From IMG/VR virus record IMGVR_UViG_3300025601_000007: a stretch of 64,000 nt of DNA; one strand, 5' to 3'. Shown here in pieces: positions 8,551 to 35,976 of the stretch. Position 1 is the stretch's first letter, and every line of letters begins with the position of its first letter. The translations under genes were made by a program, and so were the position numbers. The stretch comes from a virus (Duplodnaviria > Caudoviricetes). The notes beneath the pieces were generated by a model. It ran no database searches, was not told the DNA's origin, and saw only the letters and a program-made list of their open reading frames with translations.

Positions 8551-9822
8551 ATGGCTTCTTTAAACCCATTAACCCAGATAAACTTAAAAAACCTTCCAGG
8601 GAATCCTAAAAAAGCGATTCAAATCTCTTTGAATGCAGGATTTAAAGAGGTCGATGTGGACACAGACGAGGTCAAACACAGGAGTATCAGGCTGTTAACG
8701 GGGAAGCAGATTCTCCCTCAGCACTGGGACAAGAAGGGCAAGTGTCCATCCTTAGAGTATTGTAAAGAGTTTGGGAACGAATTAAGTGATTTCATAAAGG
8801 AGTTAGAAACACAAATGGTTAATGCTTATTGGCAAGTTAAGTCTGAGCACTACAAAACCACACCTGAACTAGTCGTGAGTAGATACAGGAGGCTTATAGG
8901 GGATGACAAAAGCGGAAAACCATTAAATGGGATGGTGTTGTTCATTCAAAAGCACATTGAGACGTCAGATTTGGCCGATACGACGAAAGCGGGTTATGTA
9001 GTAGTTTTTAATAGATTAAAAGAGTTTGAAAAAACCAGAGAGAAGAAATTATACTGGGAAAAATACACATATGATGTATTTTGCGATTTTTTTGACTGGC
9101 TCGCGAATAATTTCAATTTATCCAACAACACCTTATGGAGTCATGAAAAAGCGATGATTCGTTTTAGGAACGTAGCAGACTCTAAGGGGTTATTGGTTGA
9201 TAAATCAAAGTGGAGTCGTTTAATTCGTTATCAGCAGGAGAAGAAGGAGTATTTGAGTTGGAAACAGCTAAAAGTGTTAATTGATTACCAGCCTAAGACG
9301 AAGAGATTAAAGAACGCGAAGAGCGCATTATTGATTATGGCTTTCACAGGTATTAGAATTGGCGACCTTGACAATTTTTTCAACAACATCAAGAAAGGCG
9401 ATAATTATCGATACGCCAATTTCAAGACAAACAAATTACCGCACAACGAAGTTTACATTCCGATACTGGCTCCTATTGTGGAAATTATAGATTCACCAAT
9501 AAGAGTAACAAGGAATGCTGCTTTGACTGGCAGTATAAAAGATTTAGGAAAAGAGTTGGGGTATGATAATATATCAGCTCACACTGGAAGGAGGAGTTTT
9601 ATAACAAACTTAGTTCCTCTGGTACAGGAAAACATATTGAGAAAAATATGTGGTTTTTCGTGTTCTTCTTCTATTCACATTTATGACCAGCTACCTCTGG
9701 ATAGAGTCGCAGATATGTTCCATAAACATATTCAAGCAGCGCCTTTAACAAAAACTGAAGGTATTAAATTAATTGAAAAAGAAAAATGGTACAAAAGGAT
9801 TTTAAAAAAATTCATTCCTTGA
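8551..9822 (+). CDS. tyrosine recombinase / integrase (Bacteroidetes arm-binding + SAM-like + catalytic type)
   Basis: FTGIRIGDL (R), SAHTGRRSF (HxxR), HIYDQ (Y); N-terminal TG..I....WD arm-domain pattern; TATCTTTG host -7 box at 8522. Confidence 0.88.
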   Translation: MASLNPLTQINLKNLPGNPKKAIQISLNAGFKEVDVDTDEVKHRSIRLLTGKQILPQHWDKKGKCPSLEYCKEFGNELSDFIKELETQMVNAYWQVKSEHYKTTPELVVSRYRRLIGDDKSGKPLNGMVLFIQKHIETSDLADTTKAGYVVVFNRLKEFEKTREKKLYWEKYTYDVFCDFFDWLANNFNLSNNTLWSHEKAMIRFRNVADSKGLLVDKSKWSRLIRYQQEKKEYLSWKQLKVLIDYQPKTKRLKNAKSALLIMAFTGIRIGDLDNFFNNIKKGDNYRYANFKTNKLPHNEVYIPILAPIVEIIDSPIRVTRNAALTGSIKDLGKELGYDNISAHTGRRSFITNLVPLVQENILRKICGFSCSSSIHIYDQLPLDRVADMFHKHIQAAPLTKTEGIKLIEKEKWYKRILKKFIP

Positions 9823-9866
9823 TTTAGAGGTAAATATAATTCTTTTCCAATATTTATGATAGCAAC

Positions 9867-10181
9867 ATGTTGTTGCACAGAAAAAACAAACACATGCTAT
9901 CTTTCACACCTTCACAATTGGCTTTATTAGGATTTTATTTTTTAGATGAAACAGAGGACAATCTAGCTACTTACACCAAAATATCGAACGCTGTTTCGGA
10001 TATTATTGCCATCGGCGACCCTTATGATGCCGAGTTGATTAATTCTTTTGTACAGTCAATCCTTAATAAGGACGACATTCTGGGTAAATTAGAGTCTGAA
10101 AAAGATTTAAGTTACTTTGTAGCAAAAGCAATATTTTGGGCTGAAAAGGCTGTTGCGCCAGTTCCGACCCCGACCCGATAA
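9867..10181 (+). CDS. hypothetical protein
   Basis: ORF preceded by ATATTTAT at 9850. Confidence 0.7.
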   Translation: MLLHRKNKHMLSFTPSQLALLGFYFLDETEDNLATYTKISNAVSDIIAIGDPYDAELINSFVQSILNKDDILGKLESEKDLSYFVAKAIFWAEKAVAPVPTPTR

Positions 10182-17301: not shown

Positions 17302-17668
17302 CTAGGTCATCTTTGGTTCTGACGCTTTTGATTATCTCGTCTAAGGTCCCAGTAAATATTTCGTTTATTTTTTTCTTAGCAACAAACAAAGCTCCCTCTT
17401 CTCCATCGGTAGGATGAAGTAAATCTCGTTTCTGCTCTGCAATTTTTTGTTCTTTGCTGTATTTGTTGTGGAGTATTAGAGCAAGTATGCTAACGGCTAT
17501 GATAATTGAAGAACCTAAAATCACTGGTTCGGAGGAAACCGCAATAAGCATTGCAAAAAATACAGATATGATAATCACCACCATCGCAACTAAAGATATT
17601 GACTTTACCATCTTTGTTTGCTCTGCATTAATTATCGCCCTAACATACTCTTCTAATCTATTTTTCAT
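17282..17668 (-). CDS. 2-TM membrane protein
   Basis: Hydrophobic helices. Confidence 0.7.
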   Translation of the reverse strand: MKNRLEEYVRAIINAEQTKMVKSISLVAMVVIIISVFFAMLIAVSSEPVILGSSIIIAVSILALILHNKYSKEQKIAEQKRDLLHPTDGEEGALFVAKKKINEIFTGTLDEIIKSVRTKDDLDERDSN

Positions 17669-18411
17669 GCCAGTATTGATTTAAAAACCTCATAATTACT
17701 TCCATGTGAGTTGTGGTCATTAATTATTGGAAACACCACTTCATCAAATAGCGTTGCGTAGCTTTCATCCATCAAAACCTCTTTAAACATTCTAGCCATG
17801 TCTTCAGGGTTATTTTTAAATACTCCACACCCCCAAGCTCCAAGTATCATACACTTGACATCAAAGTTTTTTGCAGAAATAAGCATCGCTCTTATTTTCG
17901 CTTTTGTGATGGTTTCATATCCTGAAGGCTTTCCCTCGATGCAATCTACCCAACTCTCAGCTAAGGGGTCGTAGTATGATTTGCTATTTAAGTTGATAGC
18001 GGGAACCGACACAACATCAGATGTTACCCACGGGATATTTTTATAGTGAAAATCTTTCACGAAAGTTACATCGTTGGAATAAAGGAATTCTCCTGACTGA
18101 AGAGGATACATTGGCTTCAGCATGGTTTTAAAGAGGTTTGAACAGCGAAACAAAGCTTCCTCTTGAGCCTGGGCTCCATTTTCAACTCCACCTCCAGGCT
18201 TTCTGTAGGAGGCCATGTTTAAGGCGCAGGAGCGTTTGTTGTTTTCTGAGGCCTCAATAATTGCTGATACGGTGTCTGTATTCTCAACTCTAATCACTGA
18301 GTTTTTTAAAACATCAAGACCAACAACTCTAGTTTCAGCTAGACATGGAACACCGTTAAACTGATTCTTTGTGTCTTTGTAAACCGATATTAGTTCTGAA
18401 TTATTTTTCAC
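17665..18411 (-). CDS. microbial PARG / TIGR02452 (DUF2263) macrodomain ADP-ribosyl glycohydrolase
   Basis: LNMASYRKPGGG...AQEEAL.R.S.L signature; ILGAWGCGVFKN. Confidence 0.88.
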   Translation of the reverse strand: MKNNSELISVYKDTKNQFNGVPCLAETRVVGLDVLKNSVIRVENTDTVSAIIEASENNKRSCALNMASYRKPGGGVENGAQAQEEALFRCSNLFKTMLKPMYPLQSGEFLYSNDVTFVKDFHYKNIPWVTSDVVSVPAINLNSKSYYDPLAESWVDCIEGKPSGYETITKAKIRAMLISAKNFDVKCMILGAWGCGVFKNNPEDMARMFKEVLMDESYATLFDEVVFPIINDHNSHGSNYEVFKSILA

Positions 18412-28638: not shown

Positions 28639-29181
28639 TCATCGTGAGAATGGCCACAAGCCAGTCTTTTCTTTCTCTTGGCGCTCTCCAGCTATCTTTT
28701 CCCACTTTTTATTCTTTATCAACACCATAGTGTTGATATCGTCAAATGATAGACCGAATTCTTTCGCAATAAGAATCGCATCCGTCAAGATTCCTGCTGT
28801 GCTGGAACAGCCTATGCGGTCTGGAGATAGTTCTGTAGTTTTTTTGAAGACCGATATCAACAGCTCAGAGAGAGTCCTGTTGTGTTTCATTGGGATGTTG
28901 ATGTGCTCTAGAACTTTTTCACAATCTTGTGTTTTTATACTAGATGAGTCTAGCCATGAATAAACGCATTGAACTACGTCTGCTAATTCTTCATGGACGC
29001 GGGCGTTTAGCTCCTCTTCAGTTTCTTTAGCCACTTTTCTCCCCAGTCTCTTATTGACCAACTGAGCTAGTTCACCCATCTCCTCCAAGACTTTGCATAA
29101 TCTTAATTCAGGCGTAACAGGGTCCAGAGTGTTAATTCTGCGAACGTCTAAGAAAGCTTCTTTGTATAATTTCGTATTCAT
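28639..29181 (-). CDS. MazG-like NTP pyrophosphatase
   Basis: KVLEEMGELAQ...EELADVVQ. Confidence 0.8.
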   Translation of the reverse strand: MNTKLYKEAFLDVRRINTLDPVTPELRLCKVLEEMGELAQLVNKRLGRKVAKETEEELNARVHEELADVVQCVYSWLDSSSIKTQDCEKVLEHINIPMKHNRTLSELLISVFKKTTELSPDRIGCSSTAGILTDAILIAKEFGLSFDDINTMVLIKNKKWEKIAGERQEKEKTGLWPFSR

Positions 29182-29749: not shown

Positions 29750-30092
29750 TATTCAGCTTTTTTAATAACTTGACTATCTCTTTTGAGGAGACTTCTTTTG
29801 CGCCAGATAACAATGCGGAATCAAATTCCTTTCCCGATTTTATATCGTAGTGTGGCCTGCCTTTTCCTTTTTTGTTTTCATACCGACTTCTAGATATGGT
29901 TAAGAATTTTGCAAACAGATGCAGCTTCTCTGGGTTCTCACAAATCATGTGTGACCACTTCCCACTCTTTGTCTCATACTTTCTGGGCGTATCGATGTAT
30001 ATATCAGAATCCAACAATTTGTACAGGTATTCCTTTTTTTTTGGCTCTTTGGATTGTGTCTGCTGTCCCGCTGGAACCATTTGTGAACGCAA
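29739..30092 (-). CDS. DUF4031-like protein (true start probably a CTG/TTG near 30005-30017)
   Basis: IYID...SHM......LH.FA......PHYDI. Confidence 0.7.
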   Translation of the reverse strand: MRSQMVPAGQQTQSKEPKKKEYLYKLLDSDIYIDTPRKYETKSGKWSHMICENPEKLHLFAKFLTISRSRYENKKGKGRPHYDIKSGKEFDSALLSGAKEVSSKEIVKLLKKLNNGI

Positions 30093-30414
30093 TGATGAAA
30101 TTAGAGTTGTCCACTATGGTTTGGTTCCGACTGAACCCCGCCAGAGCGTTGTATGGCTTGCCAAATTTGTTGTATTTAATCTTGCAAGGTTCGGTTGTTA
30201 AGTCATCCCAGTCGGGCTCAAATTCATCGAACGGGATTCCTTTTTCCTTTGCATAATCTATACCAAGTGTATCGGCACCAGCTGCCCCACCAGACACGAT
30301 GTGGCCAATATTGTATTGACTCAAAATGCCTGAAAGCAACTGGTAATCTAGGAACTCCCTAGACCCTACCACGCCAAATCTTAATCTTCCACTTTGTTGC
30401 TTATTGCTGTTCAC
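30004..30414 (-). CDS. SLOG-superfamily (DUF2493/YspA-like) protein
   Basis: VVGSREF...IVSGGAAGADTLG..YA; RNQTIVDNS; SSGTADTI. Confidence 0.85.
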   Translation of the reverse strand: MNSNKQQSGRLRFGVVGSREFLDYQLLSGILSQYNIGHIVSGGAAGADTLGIDYAKEKGIPFDEFEPDWDDLTTEPCKIKYNKFGKPYNALAGFSRNQTIVDNSNFIIAFTNGSSGTADTIQRAKKKGIPVQIVGF

Positions 30415-30424
30415 TGTAATCTCT

Positions 30425-30763
30425 TTATCCTGGCCAAGGGCACGTGCCCTCAAGCCCACATTCTTCGCAGCCTATCCCACCCCAAGTTTTCATTTGATTT
30501 CCTTCGCAGGTTTTGCAGGTGGATGTTTTCTTAATCCACTCACGTAGTTCATCCAGCTCCTTTTTTGCCCGTTTTCTGCCTCCTTCTGCAACGTCCATAT
30601 CGAGTCTTACGCTCTCAATCTCGTGGCCAGTGCCTCGGCAGGCTGCGCACCTCCATTTTTCATCTTTAAACTTGGAGGCTTCATCATTAAGTATCGAATA
30701 TCCTTTTCCTTTGCATCTAGTGCATGCAAACTTCCCGTCTTCTGTTAGCAGTTCTTCTGACAT
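30425..30763 (-). CDS. DnaJ-type zinc-finger protein
   Basis: Four CxxCxGxG-type repeats. Confidence 0.7.
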   Translation of the reverse strand: MSEELLTEDGKFACTRCKGKGYSILNDEASKFKDEKWRCAACRGTGHEIESVRLDMDVAEGGRKRAKKELDELREWIKKTSTCKTCEGNQMKTWGGIGCEECGLEGTCPWPG

Positions 30764-30768
30764 CGTTG

Positions 30769-31614
30769 TTATCTAAATTCAGATACGCTGCACACTGGGA
30801 TAGAGTCCATTTTATGTCTATTCGCATTGTGTCTTTGCTCGAATATCTCCAAAACCTCTATTTGACGCTCACTTAGGTGTGCTCTTGCGTTTCCAGCAGG
30901 TTCATCATCCAAGTAGGCCATTGCCCACTCTAGTTCGTCGTATGCGGCTCCAATCTGGTCCTCGTCGCTTCTTGTATCATCCCAGAGACCATCAGAAGGA
31001 ACTGCGTTGAGGATGTTCTCAGAAACCCCCATCACTCTAGCCATCTCTCTAACTTCGCTTTTGAGCAAGTCAGCGATTGGGGACAAATCAACTTGACCAT
31101 CCCCTCCGACCGTGAAGAAGCCAACGCCAAAATCTTCAACTTTATTTCCAGTTCCGCAAACCAGCCCACTTAATCTGTTTGAATAGTAATACAATCCAAT
31201 CATTCTAAGCCGACTTCTAACGTTTGCTAAAGCAAGTTCATCAGTGGATTCATCAACTTCAAAAGGAATCTGAGAAGCACCTCTTTCAAAGTCTGAGACC
31301 ATTGTGTCGAAAGTGGGAGTGAGTTCAAGTTTTATAGAGTCTACGTCGTCATAGTTTTTTTTAAGCCAAGTAATTTGTTCGTTAGCTCTTGATACATGTT
31401 CATCATTTTGATGAATTGGCATCCTTACACAAAAAAGAGGATAATTTGTTTCTGCGCAAAGAGCGGATGCTAACGCTGAGTCCACACCGCCAGATACGCC
31501 AAGTATCCATATTTTTTGACCACTCTTTTCCATGTAATCATTCATCCATTGGACGATATGATTCTTGGCGCTTTTGATATCAAGAGTGCTATTGGTTTTG
31601 ACCGCAGTTTCCAT
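30769..31614 (-). CDS. nadE: NH3-dependent NAD+ synthetase
   Basis: GVSGGVDS, NVRSRLRM, GTGNKVED, DLSPIADLLKSEV; no glutaminase domain. Confidence 0.95.
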   Translation of the reverse strand: METAVKTNSTLDIKSAKNHIVQWMNDYMEKSGQKIWILGVSGGVDSALASALCAETNYPLFCVRMPIHQNDEHVSRANEQITWLKKNYDDVDSIKLELTPTFDTMVSDFERGASQIPFEVDESTDELALANVRSRLRMIGLYYYSNRLSGLVCGTGNKVEDFGVGFFTVGGDGQVDLSPIADLLKSEVREMARVMGVSENILNAVPSDGLWDDTRSDEDQIGAAYDELEWAMAYLDDEPAGNARAHLSERQIEVLEIFEQRHNANRHKMDSIPVCSVSEFR

Positions 31615-31707
31615 AGTGTGATTCCTTTTTACGAATATACGCAAACAAGCTACTAAAGTTACGATGATGGTGTCTTTTTTTCAAACTATTTACTAAAAAA
31701 ATACACC

Positions 31708-31803
31708 ATGAGCAAAGTGAGTATTTATGAATTAATTGACCCCTTGACGCAAAAACCGAGATATGTGGGGAAAACAAAAAATAGATTATCGAAGAGAATT
31801 TAA
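31708..31803 (+). pseudogene. GIY-YIG homing endonuclease N-terminal remnant
   Basis: MSKVSIYELIDPLTQKPRYVGKTKNRLSKRI*; CTATTTAC upstream. Confidence 0.7.
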
Positions 31804-31833
31804 GAACTCCTTATTTTCATGGTGCGCCATGTC

Positions 31834-32478
31834 TCATTTTTTCACAAAGTCGTATGCACCGTGCTCTTCAATGTAATCTACAACAGATTTTGGTGCCATG
31901 TCATCGATAGAGTTCCCATCGCGTATTGCATCTCTTATTGCTGTGGAAGATGCTTCCGTTGTAATGGCATCTAGATAGTAAGAGTTGCTGTGCAAGATTT
32001 CATTTGTAGCAGGCTTGTGTTTTCCGTCTCTCGGAAATACCCAAAACTTAAACGTCTTGTGAATCCATTTCCCACTTCTCCAAATTTGAATCTTGTGGTG
32101 AGTATCTGTTCCACACACAATAAACAGCTGGGCATCAGGGTTATCTTCCTGCAGCTCTTGTAGAGTGTGGTGAGTGAAGCTTGGTTTTGTTTCCTGGAAG
32201 AACTCGACGTTGGTCGCATGAACATTTGGGTTTCCCAATTCTTCGATTGCTTTTTCAACCATATCCCAACGATGGTTCTCCAGAGCCAATAAGCCCTTCT
32301 TCCATTTGTGTGGGTTGTGTGGTGAAACACAAAACCATAATTCATCCAACGAGACACCATCTGACTTAGCTTCAACAGAAGCAACTCCAACGTGGATATG
32401 TCCAGATGTTATAGGATTAAAACTTCCAAAAAAGATTCCGATGTTTCCTGTTTTGCCTACTGGTTTTATTTTATTCAT
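31834..32478 (-). CDS. nadD: nicotinate-nucleotide adenylyltransferase
   Basis: FFGSFNPITSGH, SPHNPHK, CGTD, ASSTAIR. Confidence 0.92.
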   Translation of the reverse strand: MNKIKPVGKTGNIGIFFGSFNPITSGHIHVGVASVEAKSDGVSLDELWFCVSPHNPHKWKKGLLALENHRWDMVEKAIEELGNPNVHATNVEFFQETKPSFTHHTLQELQEDNPDAQLFIVCGTDTHHKIQIWRSGKWIHKTFKFWVFPRDGKHKPATNEILHSNSYYLDAITTEASSTAIRDAIRDGNSIDDMAPKSVVDYIEEHGAYDFVKK

Positions 32479-32956
32479 GGATAACTTGTGGTTCTGGGAT
32501 TGTGCATTTTCTCTCGTCAATTTCTTTTTTAATCCTCTTTCTTACGATGTGATGAATTTTCTTGCTTGTTCCATCTTCATTAACTCTGACAAACGTTGTT
32601 GTGGCAGTTCCAACTGGAGATACATCGCCATTTTCCACATCTACTTTAAAGATATCCATTTCAAGAGTGATAGATGTGTTTCCGATGTTGATTACCTCTC
32701 CAAAGAAATGAATTACATCACCAGCATTCACCTTTGATATAAATCCAGTTTCTGTGTGAACAGTTCTAAGGAGCTTAGTTTCAGATTTCTCCATAAGATG
32801 CATAGCTGCGGCTTTATCCACCCACGCCATCATCTCTCCTCCGAAAAGGGCGTCTCCGAAACCAAGTTCTTTCTGGAGACATAGCTGCTTCCAGATTCTT
32901 GTTTTAGTGTAGTCTTCAGGGAGTTTTCCTTGCGGTATTTTTCGTCTCTCTCTCAT
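32471..32956 (-). CDS. HotDog-fold acyl-CoA thioesterase (YciA-like)
   Basis: LFGGEMMAWVDKAAA; F...V..GD; IGNTSITL. Confidence 0.85.
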   Translation of the reverse strand: MRERRKIPQGKLPEDYTKTRIWKQLCLQKELGFGDALFGGEMMAWVDKAAAMHLMEKSETKLLRTVHTETGFISKVNAGDVIHFFGEVINIGNTSITLEMDIFKVDVENGDVSPVGTATTTFVRVNEDGTSKKIHHIVRKRIKKEIDERKCTIPEPQVIHE

Positions 32957-34188
32957 GTTATAATTGGTTTTTGTTGTGGAATTTTAAGAGTCAACTTAGC
33001 AAGCTTAATCTCATGCTTATCCCCTATCTCTTTACCGACACCATCGGCTATCTTAATCACGTATACCCAATCGCTATATCGATTCACAGACATACTTGTC
33101 ATTTTCATGACTTGATTCATTGGTTTCACTTCTGGGATATCACAAGTAAACCATGTTCCTATTCCTAAAGAAAAAGAAATTTTTAAATTCTTTGAGTGGT
33201 CTCGCATCTCTTCGCACAGCTTCATTGAGTTAATTCCATCGCTGTAAACATAATTCTTCGATGTCGGGTCTATTCCGAGTTCTTTGTATTTGTTGTAGAA
33301 CTTTAGAGTCCACGCTTTCCAGTCTCCACTGTCTTGACGAGCGCCGTCGTAAAGGCGTCCGTAATAAGTGTCAAATGACGCAAGGAAAGAATCTGTTGTG
33401 AATGTGTCTGGTAAGACGATTCCCATTCGCCCCTGGTATACGCTGTTCCAATTCTCCATCGCACGGTAATTCGCCATCTTGTAGCCATAAACACCTGCGT
33501 GAAACTGATGCCATTCGTGACCAGTTGTGCCAATCATTTTGAGATTGTGCTTCATCGCAATGTGCATGTTTGAGGTTCCGATAAAAGCATTACCAATTGC
33601 ACGGCTTAAAGCTTTAGTGACTTGTTCGTGAATTTGGTAGCTATGTCGTCTGCGGCTTCCGAAGTCAACGTGAGGGATAACTTTCATGTTTAGGTGAGTC
33701 CCTTTCTCTGCTGCAACAGTTGTTGCCTTTTGGACATTAATATCATCTAGCCCGTTTCCAGTCATTTCGTGAAACAATTCAGAAACAGTAGATAGGACAG
33801 GAATTTCCCATCGCATTGCGCTTACGGTTGGACCCTCAGCTTTTATGCGAAGTGTATTTTCTTTTTCGTCGTGAAATATTTGTAGCTCTGCTGGATTGTA
33901 CCTAAAATTGATTAGGTAATCGATTGCCGCCAAAGGCAAGTGAGGAGCATTGTCAAGAAGGTATTTCTCTGCGTTATCTGGAGCTCGAAGCTCTCCGTAT
34001 TGGTTGAAAAGATACTGGAGCGCTGCGCCAAATCCTTTTGGCCACTGAACATCGCTTCTAAGAGTGTATTCAAAACTGCAACGTGAATCAGGGAACTTCA
34101 TCATGTATGCCCATTGCATATTAATTTTGTAAAAATCGCAGTCAAATGTGCTCTGCGTATACTTTCCTTGATTAATCTTTGGTTTCAT
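32953..34188 (-). CDS. pncB: nicotinate phosphoribosyltransferase
   Basis: DFYKINM, DFGSRRRHS, GTTGHEW, DTF, RQDSGD, YSDG, GIGT (PncB-type, not Nampt-type). Confidence 0.93.
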   Translation of the reverse strand: MKPKINQGKYTQSTFDCDFYKINMQWAYMMKFPDSRCSFEYTLRSDVQWPKGFGAALQYLFNQYGELRAPDNAEKYLLDNAPHLPLAAIDYLINFRYNPAELQIFHDEKENTLRIKAEGPTVSAMRWEIPVLSTVSELFHEMTGNGLDDINVQKATTVAAEKGTHLNMKVIPHVDFGSRRRHSYQIHEQVTKALSRAIGNAFIGTSNMHIAMKHNLKMIGTTGHEWHQFHAGVYGYKMANYRAMENWNSVYQGRMGIVLPDTFTTDSFLASFDTYYGRLYDGARQDSGDWKAWTLKFYNKYKELGIDPTSKNYVYSDGINSMKLCEEMRDHSKNLKISFSLGIGTWFTCDIPEVKPMNQVMKMTSMSVNRYSDWVYVIKIADGVGKEIGDKHEIKLAKLTLKIPQQKPIIT

Positions 34189-34243
34189 ATGCTAAGATTT
34201 GTGGTTATACAAATGTACGCATATTCGCCCAAAAAGTTACGTT

Positions 34244-34837
34244 TTATCGGTTGTTAATCATTTTCACTATTTCATCCTCGTCTATGCTTTTAAGACTGGT
34301 GTATTCGTGTTTTGGTTGGTCTTGAGAAGATATACACTCAATAACTTTGAGGTATTCTCCTTTTGTCACACCAAGCTTTACGTAAGAAGGCATTTGCCTA
34401 TCCCCACCTGCCATGAATATAAGGTTCTTATCATTGAGTTGAACGATATCCCAGTTTTCATAATCCAGGGATTCAGTTTCTCCTTCTTTATTTTTGGCGA
34501 ATGTCTTTCCAGAGTATTCGATTTCATAGAAGTCGATTTCCTGCACAATCTCCTTTCCGTCGTCATCTTCGTCTTTTTCACAGAAGTTAGAATTAAACAA
34601 AGCTTTTAACAAGCCTGAGTCAACGAACTCTACTTGCTCGGTGTGTTTTGCTACTGAATCCTTTATCTCTTCTATGTTGGAGATGGAATCAAAGACAAAT
34701 TTTACTACTTTTCCGCTTCGCTTGACTGCTTCAACGACATCTTGAAGAGATTTGATTCCTTCTGGTTTTGTACCAGTTTCAACCTCAAGCTGCTTCAATA
34801 GTGAGTCCACTTGAGACTCAAGACTGTATTTATTCAT
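34244..34837 (-). CDS. acidic hypothetical protein (start corrected to MNKYSLE)
   Basis: ECF promoter 34858-34885 upstream. Confidence 0.75.
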   Translation of the reverse strand: MNKYSLESQVDSLLKQLEVETGTKPEGIKSLQDVVEAVKRSGKVVKFVFDSISNIEEIKDSVAKHTEQVEFVDSGLLKALFNSNFCEKDEDDDGKEIVQEIDFYEIEYSGKTFAKNKEGETESLDYENWDIVQLNDKNLIFMAGGDRQMPSYVKLGVTKGEYLKVIECISSQDQPKHEYTSLKSIDEDEIVKMINNR

Positions 34838-34920
34838 GATTTGCTGTTGTTGCGCAATATACGGTGAAACGAAAAAAAGGTTACAAAAAAGGAAAGACCT
34901 AGTCAGACTAGGCCTCACCT

Positions 34921-35976
34921 TTAATTCAGTACCTCGTTGGCGACTCCTGGCATGTTTGCCTCGTCTCCCCACGCTGTTACGTTGAGCCATCCGCCGTTTA
35001 CTTTGGCCTGGATGATTGGGTCATCATCTCTAAACCATTTATCGACAGCTGGTGCTTCAACTCGAAATCCTTCTGGGACAACTCTAAACTTTTGGTCAAT
35101 CTCAAACCCTTCAAGCTTTAGCATGTGCTTTGGCGCGATGATTTTGAGTTCAATCTTGTGTTCGGTCATTCCCTTTTGCAGGCGAGCGACAGCTTCAATT
35201 AGAACTGGGTGCATACCCAAGCTTTCTTTGGCAATGGCGCCTTCTTTTTTAGCGAATCCCATAACATCTGAGTTATTTATAAATTTGTGTGCGTGTAGCA
35301 CTTTAAATGCAGACAAGAACATTTCTGCGTACTTGTCTAGTACTTTCTTGTTAAGCTTTCCGCCTTCGTGCTCCAAAATACCCGTCATTCCCTCAGTGGA
35401 CCGACTTCCTGCGCTTCTTTGGTAAGACTCCCATTTTGCAATTACAGTCTTAATTGGTTCCCAAGCGGCTTTCTTGGTGAGCTTTTTGTTTCCATAGGCT
35501 TTTGCGAAGTCCCATGTTCTATTTTCACCATCAACCTTGATAGAGAACTCAGTCACGTCTAGTGATTCCATAAAAAGGCTTTCCAAGAATGGTTTAACTT
35601 TTTCATCTCTAGAGAATGCTATCAAATCCTTTTGATTCTTGACAGGGATGCTGTCAATGTATATGTTCACGGGGGCTTGTACGAGGCCGAACTTTTTACA
35701 CAACTCAAAAACTGCGTCCTCGGTCATGAATTTATAGTTGAAAGCTATCTCTCGATACTTGGTAATGATGGCTTGCAATTCTTTTACTCTCTCCAGTTCT
35801 TTTGGCTCAAGTTGACGAGCTTGCTTGAAACTGGTGAACCCAAGAGATTTGAGTTCCTCTACACTTTCAATCACTTTTGTGTCTTGAGCATCTGAGAGAA
35901 TTTGCTTGGCATTTTCCAAGAGTTTCATTTCGGCTGTAGAAGCCTCGTAGTGAATTTGTTCTATGATGCTGTTCAT
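34921..35976 (-). CDS. hypothetical protein (start corrected to MNSIIEQ)
   Basis: Long ORF; DPI...V.GGW..V.AWGDEA C-terminus. Confidence 0.8.
   Translation of the reverse strand: MNSIIEQIHYEASTAEMKLLENAKQILSDAQDTKVIESVEELKSLGFTSFKQARQLEPKELERVKELQAIITKYREIAFNYKFMTEDAVFELCKKFGLVQAPVNIYIDSIPVKNQKDLIAFSRDEKVKPFLESLFMESLDVTEFSIKVDGENRTWDFAKAYGNKKLTKKAAWEPIKTVIAKWESYQRSAGSRSTEGMTGILEHEGGKLNKKVLDKYAEMFLSAFKVLHAHKFINNSDVMGFAKKEGAIAKESLGMHPVLIEAVARLQKGMTEHKIELKIIAPKHMLKLEGFEIDQKFRVVPEGFRVEAPAVDKWFRDDDPIIQAKVNGGWLNVTAWGDEANMPGVANEVLN

Follow-up and report, generated by a model that had tools for sequence, protein, structure and literature searches.

Depletion of nicotinamide adenine dinucleotide (NAD+) is among the commonest means by which bacteria cut short a phage infection, and experiments have established three phage pathways that restore this cofactor. 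NAD+ reconstitution pathway 1 (NARP1) consists of Adps and Namat, and NARP2 of Nampt and Nmnat; neither involves nicotinate, and the preprint that describes them is silent on PncB, NadD, and NadE. NARP3, published in 2026, is made up of PnuC and NadR (PMC13464706). The locus examined in this report lies at positions 30,769 to 34,188 of the IMG/VR virus record IMGVR_UViG_3300025601_000007 (Duplodnaviria; Caudoviricetes), within a stretch of 64,000 nucleotides that is referred to below as the window. It carries pncB, nadD, and nadE together with a gene for a hotdog-type thioesterase, and is regarded here, with a probability of roughly 0.75, as a working phage operon for the supply of NAD+ through the deamidated Preiss-Handler route.

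This route has features in common with NARP2 and NARP3, since in all three the phage itself encodes enzymes that rebuild NAD+ from a pyridine compound. The two published pathways differ in that they use the amidated nicotinamide mononucleotide (NMN) route, have no NadE step, and depend on other enzyme families. They have also been shown by experiment to overcome NADase defences, whereas such an effect of the present route is hypothetical. When the window was compared with each published pathway, no phosphoribosyl-pyrophosphate-synthetase-like domain of the NARP1 kind was found among its open reading frames (ORFs); its phosphoribosyltransferase is a PncB at the equivalog level, and NadD and NadE come after it. 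Similarly, the window contains no Nampt, NadR, or PnuC gene of the NARP2 or NARP3 kind. The enzyme families thus support the initial annotation of this DNA, which had described a deamidated route that is neither NARP1 nor NARP2. The same annotation went on to propose a candidate third NAD-reconstitution strategy. That label has already been taken by NARP3, and both the gene clusters and the idea were published in 2024.

The 2024 publication, a paper in Microbiome, defines "NAD-jumbo phages" on the basis of clustered pncB, nadD, and nadE genes (for example, in Kuafu_71 and Kuafu_19), with Bacteroidota as predicted hosts and with salt ponds among the listed habitats (PMC11662467). Its authors proposed that the clusters counter NAD+ depletion, reported no experiments, and called for verification. 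They also pointed to the many NAD-consuming enzymes of such phages and to hosts that have the de novo route only. The present locus belongs to this type of cluster, as all three genes are present and physically clustered, and it likewise comes from a large phage linked to Bacteroidota. It differs in having a thioesterase gene, which the text of the paper, supplementary tables apart, does not mention. The phage itself also has another origin, outside the gut. Preiss-Handler clusters of phages having been described in 2024, this conserved gene inside the operon is the sole new detail.

A second known arrangement is the four-step cluster, pncA-pncB-nadE-nadD, frequently with a NUDIX gene, which occurs in MT835470.1, in phage Phosso, and in many IMG/VR contigs. 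These clusters resemble the present operon in uniting PncB, NadD, and NadE in one co-directional phage cluster. They differ in that they encode an isochorismatase-type nicotinamidase, usually a NUDIX hydrolase, and never a hotdog protein, while the present operon encodes a hotdog protein and no nicotinamidase. In the gut phage MT835470.1, the gene order is isochorismatase-like pncA, pncB, nadE, an AAA ATPase gene, nadD, and NUDIX. The 469-kb genome of Sinorhizobium phage Phosso contains nadE, pncB, a MutT-like gene, an NMNAT gene, a gene for an isochorismatase-like "hydrolase", and one for a nucleoside deoxyribosyltransferase. Phosso is a cultured phage, and would be usable for experiments.

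Gene content and promoter-like motifs

The minus strand from 30769 to 34188 contains four intact, co-directional reading frames in the order pncB-hotdog-nadD-nadE. These, and two promoter-like motifs associated with them, are as follows.

32953-34188, minus strand: pncB, ATP-dependent nicotinate phosphoribosyltransferase, 411 amino acids (PF04095, PF17767, and TIGR01514)
32471-32956, minus strand: YciA-type hotdog acyl-coenzyme A (CoA) thioesterase, 161 amino acids (PF03061, PDB relatives, and LFGG...D)
31834-32478, minus strand: nadD, nicotinate-mononucleotide adenylyltransferase, 214 amino acids from the ATG at 32478 (TIGR00482 and motifs)
30769-31614, minus strand: nadE, NH3-dependent NAD+ synthetase, 281 amino acids from the ATG at 31614 (PF02540, TIGR00552, and phrog_11189)
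34216-34240, minus strand: extracytoplasmic function (ECF)-like motif GTAAC-N16-CGTA, 28 nt upstream of the pncB ATG (motif search)
31638-31662, minus strand: ECF-like motif GTAAC-N16-CGTA, 24 nt ahead of the ATG of nadE (motif search)

The initial annotation had named pncB, nadD, and nadE. All three are indeed present, intact, and co-directional, with equivalog scores and catalytic motifs, but the thioesterase gene at 32471-32956 was overlooked; it lies between pncB and nadD, and shares 4 nt with the former at its stop and 8 nt with the latter at its start.

PncB scored 324.7 bits against the equivalog TIGR01514 (cut-off 269.55) and only 43 bits against the PHROG nicotinamide-phosphoribosyltransferase (Nampt) family, and is thus of the PncB rather than the Nampt type, as had been annotated. 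It retains 42 of the 42 columns that are invariant among 34 aligned PncB sequences; one of these is His224 in GTTGHEW, the phospho-histidine position. For NadD, the family criterion was the presence of the (H/T)xGH and SxTxxR motifs, which occur here as TSGH and SSTAIR; the protein scored 116.1 bits against the equivalog TIGR00482 (cut-off 112.45) and shows 40 invariant columns over nine phage homologues. Its reading frame extends upstream to a TTG at 32520 (ORF 31834-32520), and the ATG at 32478 is probably the start because homologues measure 210-217 amino acids. NadE scored 151 bits against PF02540, 155.9 bits against TIGR00552, and 237 bits against phrog_11189, and carries the SGGVDS PP-loop. 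Profile searches detected no nitrilase or glutaminase domain in it, and since it consists of a single domain, it can be assigned to the NH3 type, again in line with the initial annotation. The nadE frame also runs upstream to a TTG, at 31644 (281-291 amino acids), with 31614 as the probable start.

Ratios of nonsynonymous to synonymous substitution (dN/dS) against relatives, with saturation at synonymous sites, came to 0.07-0.10 for pncB, 0.07 for the hotdog gene, 0.09-0.17 for nadD, and 0.08-0.11 for nadE, values that indicate strong purifying selection on all four genes.

From these family assignments, the predicted pathway has three steps. PncB would convert nicotinate to nicotinate mononucleotide (NaMN), using phosphoribosyl pyrophosphate and ATP. 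NadD would adenylate NaMN, supplied either by PncB or by the de novo pathway of the host, to nicotinate adenine dinucleotide (NaAD), and the one-domain NadE would then complete the route by using free ammonia to amidate NaAD, which yields NAD+.

The initial annotation had placed ECF-type promoters before pncB and nadE, and the motif search confirms ECF-like boxes at both places. The sequence GTAAC-N16-CGTA has four exact copies in the window, compared with 0.18 expected; the other two copies precede the gene upstream of pncB and the CCA-enzyme gene. The box before pncB is conserved at equal distance in four relatives (L001, L002, L005, and L006) in which the surrounding DNA is unalignable, and in L006 a box also precedes nadE. 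A broader form, G(A/T)AAC-N16-CGTA, occurs 15 times (0.43 expected), spread over positions 2904-48805 of the window; the copies are almost all on the minus strand, and those inspected sit just upstream of genes. In layout, the "AAC ... CGT" pattern resembles promoters of ECF sigma factors; none of the ORFs of the window was seen to encode a sigma factor. The sites look like a phage-specific regulon in this genome. Within it, one putative promoter would drive pncB-hotdog-nadD and the other nadE.

A terminator-like hairpin at 34894-34916 is directly followed by an ECF-like box at 34860-34884, both of them inside the listed ORF 34244-34990. The gene upstream of this ORF ends at 34921, and the true start of the gene within the ORF probably lies downstream of 34860.

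Relatives and distribution of viral pncB clusters

The phage nature of the window is supported by PHROG matches, gene content, and relatives in IMG/VR. Its matches in PHROG and Pfam are typical of large phages, and include thymidylate synthase, a dNMP kinase-HAD fusion, CCA-type nucleotidyltransferase, RlaP, PARG, DHFR, and adenylate kinase; many other ORFs have no PHROG or Pfam match. When the phage collection was searched with the locus by megablast, no match was returned, and a single-protein scan of IMG/VR gave no close relative, so alignment-based scans of IMG/VR were needed.

The operon is conserved among phages. By PncB identity, six relatives fall at 62-73%, a further group (P0009-P0014) at 41-48%, and bacterial proteins, mostly from Bacteroidota, at 36-40%. 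Related phage contigs, at least a dozen of them, from metagenomes or IMG/VR have the order pncB-hotdog-nadD-nadE as well. It occurs in L001, L002, L003, L005, L006, L008, and L096/L097, plus three contigs read from their gene tables, PncB identity falling as low as 44%, and also in L124 and L155, where a homing endonuclease gene and a NUDIX gene have been inserted. In fact, every relative with readable context retains the order, although small extra genes are sometimes inserted. For instance, L001 and L006 have a small gene between nadD and nadE, no remnant of which was found in the window. In the 106-kb record G001, which holds L096 and has an estimated completeness of 31%, NadE (10538-11896 of L096) is 452 amino acids long, owing to an N-terminal extension of ~180 amino acids that has no Pfam match and is neither a nitrilase nor a glutaminase.

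Profiles built for five gene families were scanned on the 80 nearest bacterial pncB loci and on the best 80 of 443 IMG/VR matches to PncB. Bacterial pncB is mostly solitary: it stands alone in 76 of the 80 loci, and adjoins nadE in none and the hotdog gene in none. Among the best 80 viral loci, by comparison, 71 cluster pncB with nadE, nadD, pncA, or NUDIX. The pncA gene is present in 52 of them; 21 have pncA, nadD, and nadE together, and four have the hotdog gene, nadD, and nadE without pncA. Judging by these counts, the nicotinate route occurs widely among large phages. Matches to "Acinetobacter phage MD-2021a" were set aside as they come from bacterial-looking contigs. One of these, CAKLQH020000008.1, is filed as phage and looks bacterial-chromosomal, with serB, dtd, psd, phoR, and phoB around pncB.

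The distribution also bears on whether the cluster could be a recently captured set of host genes, or a decaying and inactive passenger, an outcome that the initial annotation had named as fatal to its proposal. The PncB family is bacterial in origin, and its nearest cellular relatives are in Bacteroidota, as would be expected after such a capture. However, the nearest bacterial PncB proteins are no more than 36-40% identical, and the gene order of the operon is absent from the 80 nearest bacterial loci. As for decay, the frames are intact, their lengths equal those of relatives, and the dN/dS ratios are 0.07-0.17, while phage-type promoters are conserved upstream. Because the bacterial loci differ and selection is maintained, the cluster is neither host-like nor decaying, and capture or decay is a most improbable explanation, to be given next to no weight.

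A 735-kb uncultured phage (LR756501.1 / LR756503.1) is credited in the literature with nadD only (PMC11662467). A combination of tblastn and Pfam searches located pncB at 430260-431426, near nadE, and nadD at 31118-31720, and it therefore possesses all three Preiss-Handler genes. A 170-amino-acid gene after its pncB was considered as a diverged hotdog gene and rejected, since BLASTP found no similarity and Pfam no match.

Source of nicotinate and possible roles

ORFs of at least 100 amino acids in the window were searched for PF00857 (Isochorismatase/PncA) with no match, in agreement with the initial annotation, which saw no nicotinamidase in the window. PF00857 was also absent from four related IMG/VR records with hotdog-type modules, records that are 4-65% complete; a control record of the pncA type did match, at 19.8 bits only. 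With no nicotinamidase in the phage DNA examined, recycling of nicotinamide would need the PncA of the host. All five of the tested Bacteroidota genomes with a related PncB carry genes of the Isochorismatase family, a finding that does not by itself imply nicotinamidase activity, and host PncA is a plausible source of nicotinate.

Under the preferred reading of the locus as an NAD+ supply operon, the encoded enzymes would keep the NAD+ pool of an infected Bacteroidota cell filled and thereby serve the NAD-consuming reactions of the phage, and would probably also offset the loss of NAD+ caused by NADase defences of the host. Such a supply or anti-defence role is plausible, and is already a hypothesis in the literature.

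Several points weigh against this reading. The remainder of the phage genome may hold a distant pncA, Nampt, or NadR gene. Without a nicotinamidase, the operon alone cannot reuse nicotinamide, which is the product of NADase defences, and the idea that it offsets such defences becomes less convincing. In addition, thioesterases are not known to take part in NAD+ metabolism, and of the best 80 IMG/VR hotdog loci, 72 lack any NAD gene within 6 kb, so that the presence of the hotdog gene in the operon may be historical rather than functional.

As to what the NAD+ is for, purely metabolic provisioning, unconnected with immunity, is quite possible, if somewhat short of an even chance. In this case, the operon would furnish NAD+ for phage ADP-ribosyltransferases or an NAD-dependent ligase, or would complement hosts that lack nicotinate salvage. 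Provisioning fits the many NAD-consuming enzymes reported for such phages and the existence of hosts limited to the de novo route (PMC11662467), and the promoter type is common to other metabolic genes of this phage, that for the CCA enzyme included. On the other hand, Bacteroidota, the source of the nearest PncB relatives, commonly own pncB, and complementation of the host is therefore not obviously needed. It should also be recognized that sequence data cannot separate provisioning from counter-defence.

The alternative of dedicated counter-defence is that the operon constitutes a fourth NAD+ reconstitution pathway, directed against SIR2, TIR, or DSR-type defences, in which host PncA turns the released nicotinamide into nicotinate. 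This may be held as a tentative possibility. NARP1, NARP2, and NARP3 all demonstrate that resynthesis of NAD+ is a means by which phages meet NADase immunity, and the role has been proposed by the authors of PMC11662467. Moreover, most other viral pncB clusters add pncA (52 of the 80 loci) and NUDIX, a combination that fits the recycling of both products of an NADase; pncA-like and NUDIX or MutT-like genes are carried, for example, by the MT835470 and Phosso clusters. A SLOG gene just downstream of the present operon and a PARG gene in the same window point in the same direction, although neighbours suggestive of conflict are weak evidence in a jumbo phage rich in accessory genes. Against counter-defence, the present variant lacks pncA both in the window and in the four related viral records, the route is longer and more costly in ATP than NARP2, and the literature searched yielded no experiment on any phage Preiss-Handler cluster.

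The locus offers a well-conserved, clonable example from a Bacteroidota phage that lacks its own nicotinamidase, and is thus a natural test case for dependence on host PncA in the face of NADases. A further question is what part an acyl-CoA thioesterase would play when co-expressed with such a route. The discovery as such is an incremental one.

The thioesterase gene and other neighbours

The hotdog protein matches PF03061 at 42 bits, and its relatives of known structure include PDB 3d6l (1.5e-9) and YciA of H. influenzae, 1yli (3.6e-8). Residues L37, F38, G39, G40, and D47, which form the LFGG...D signature, are invariant among 13-15 hotdog homologues; the aspartate that follows LFGG, at the start of the central helix, is the catalytic residue of YciA. 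The protein thus shares the hotdog fold family, the LFGG motif, and the following aspartate with YciA-type thioesterases such as HI0827 of H. influenzae (PDB 1yli/3bjk) and 3d6l of C. jejuni. It differs from them in being encoded by a phage, in having extensions of ~25 amino acids at both the N- and the C-terminus, and in being embedded in an NAD+ operon. It appears to be a real, selected, and co-expressed gene for a predicted acyl-CoA thioesterase, with an unexplained link to NAD+.

In all relatives, the hotdog gene is found directly 3′ of pncB or after an inserted homing endonuclease gene. Since the separator in L124 and L155 is a GIY-YIG homing endonuclease, the adjacency of pncB and hotdog is universal in effect. 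GIY-YIG/NUMOD genes occupy 9273-9986 in L124 and 9313-10023 and 7235-7924 in L155; besides the one between pncB and the hotdog gene, L155 has another just upstream of pncB.

Such constancy suggests that the hotdog protein might take an active part in the route, for example as a non-canonical nicotinamidase that replaces PncA or by hydrolysing some metabolite linked to CoA or ADP-ribose, which would render the module self-sufficient. If this were true, the four genes would represent a self-sufficient, previously unrecognised NAD+ reconstitution pathway able to defeat NADase immunity. In addition to its fixed position, the gene overlaps both neighbours and is under purifying selection, and it never co-occurs with pncA across about 70 viral pncB loci. 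The PF00857 search is also in keeping with the idea, given that the four hotdog-type records had no Isochorismatase gene while the pncA-type control matched, albeit that the records are only 4-65% complete. However, the protein has a normal YciA-type sequence with LFGG...D, and the alignment of its homologues shows no invariant cysteine or metal ligands of the nicotinamidase kind. The family is also common in phages without nearby NAD genes, and the mutual exclusion with pncA may be a single historical event. Taken together, a working role in the route is very unlikely.

The historical explanation draws on the trees. A quick PncB tree placed hotdog-type modules in two clades, and two origins of such modules were at first claimed. 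The claim was dropped because the approximately unbiased (AU) test on PncB did not reject a single hotdog-type clade, and the constrained tree in fact has the higher likelihood. The hotdog tree shows three NAD-linked clades, and again a single clade was not rejected (p-AU 0.116). Hotdog-type modules are therefore compatible with a single origin, and the exclusion of hotdog and pncA may reflect one event.

Outside of this operon type, genes for YciA-like hotdog thioesterases are common among the accessory genes of phages, and IMG/VR has at least 565 such loci. In the loci inspected (L177-L256), they mostly occur away from NAD genes, and a general link between phage hotdog and NAD genes was rejected on the count of 72 in 80 given above. 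Annotated examples are found in Flavobacterium phage immuto and Xanthomonas phage XacN1, and the role of these proteins in phages appears to be undescribed. For the present operon, the preferred reading would have an ordinary YciA-type thioesterase that is co-expressed with the pathway, for which the best guess is management of cofactor pools through the freeing of CoA. A co-folding prediction of PncB, NadD, and the hotdog protein returned a score of 0.00, which gives no verdict and speaks neither for nor against binding.

Two further genes on the same strand follow the operon.

30425-30763, minus strand: gene for a DnaJ-type zinc-finger protein, directly downstream of nadE (PF00684 match below the cut-off)
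30004-30459, minus strand: gene for a SLOG/YAcAr protein (PF10686, 38.5 bits versus a cut-off of 28.2)

As they are co-directional, both may be co-transcribed with the operon, which would not imply membership in the pathway. The initial annotation had listed SLOG, MazG, and macrodomain neighbours. SLOG (YAcAr) stands, whereas the MazG-like match at 28639-29181 is below the Pfam cut-off, and the macrodomain is a microbial PARG ~12 kb away. The latter, a microbial-type PARG catalytic domain at 17665-18411 (77.6 bits), belongs to an ADP-ribose-removing enzyme. The YAcAr gene downstream of nadE is also present in the relative L006.

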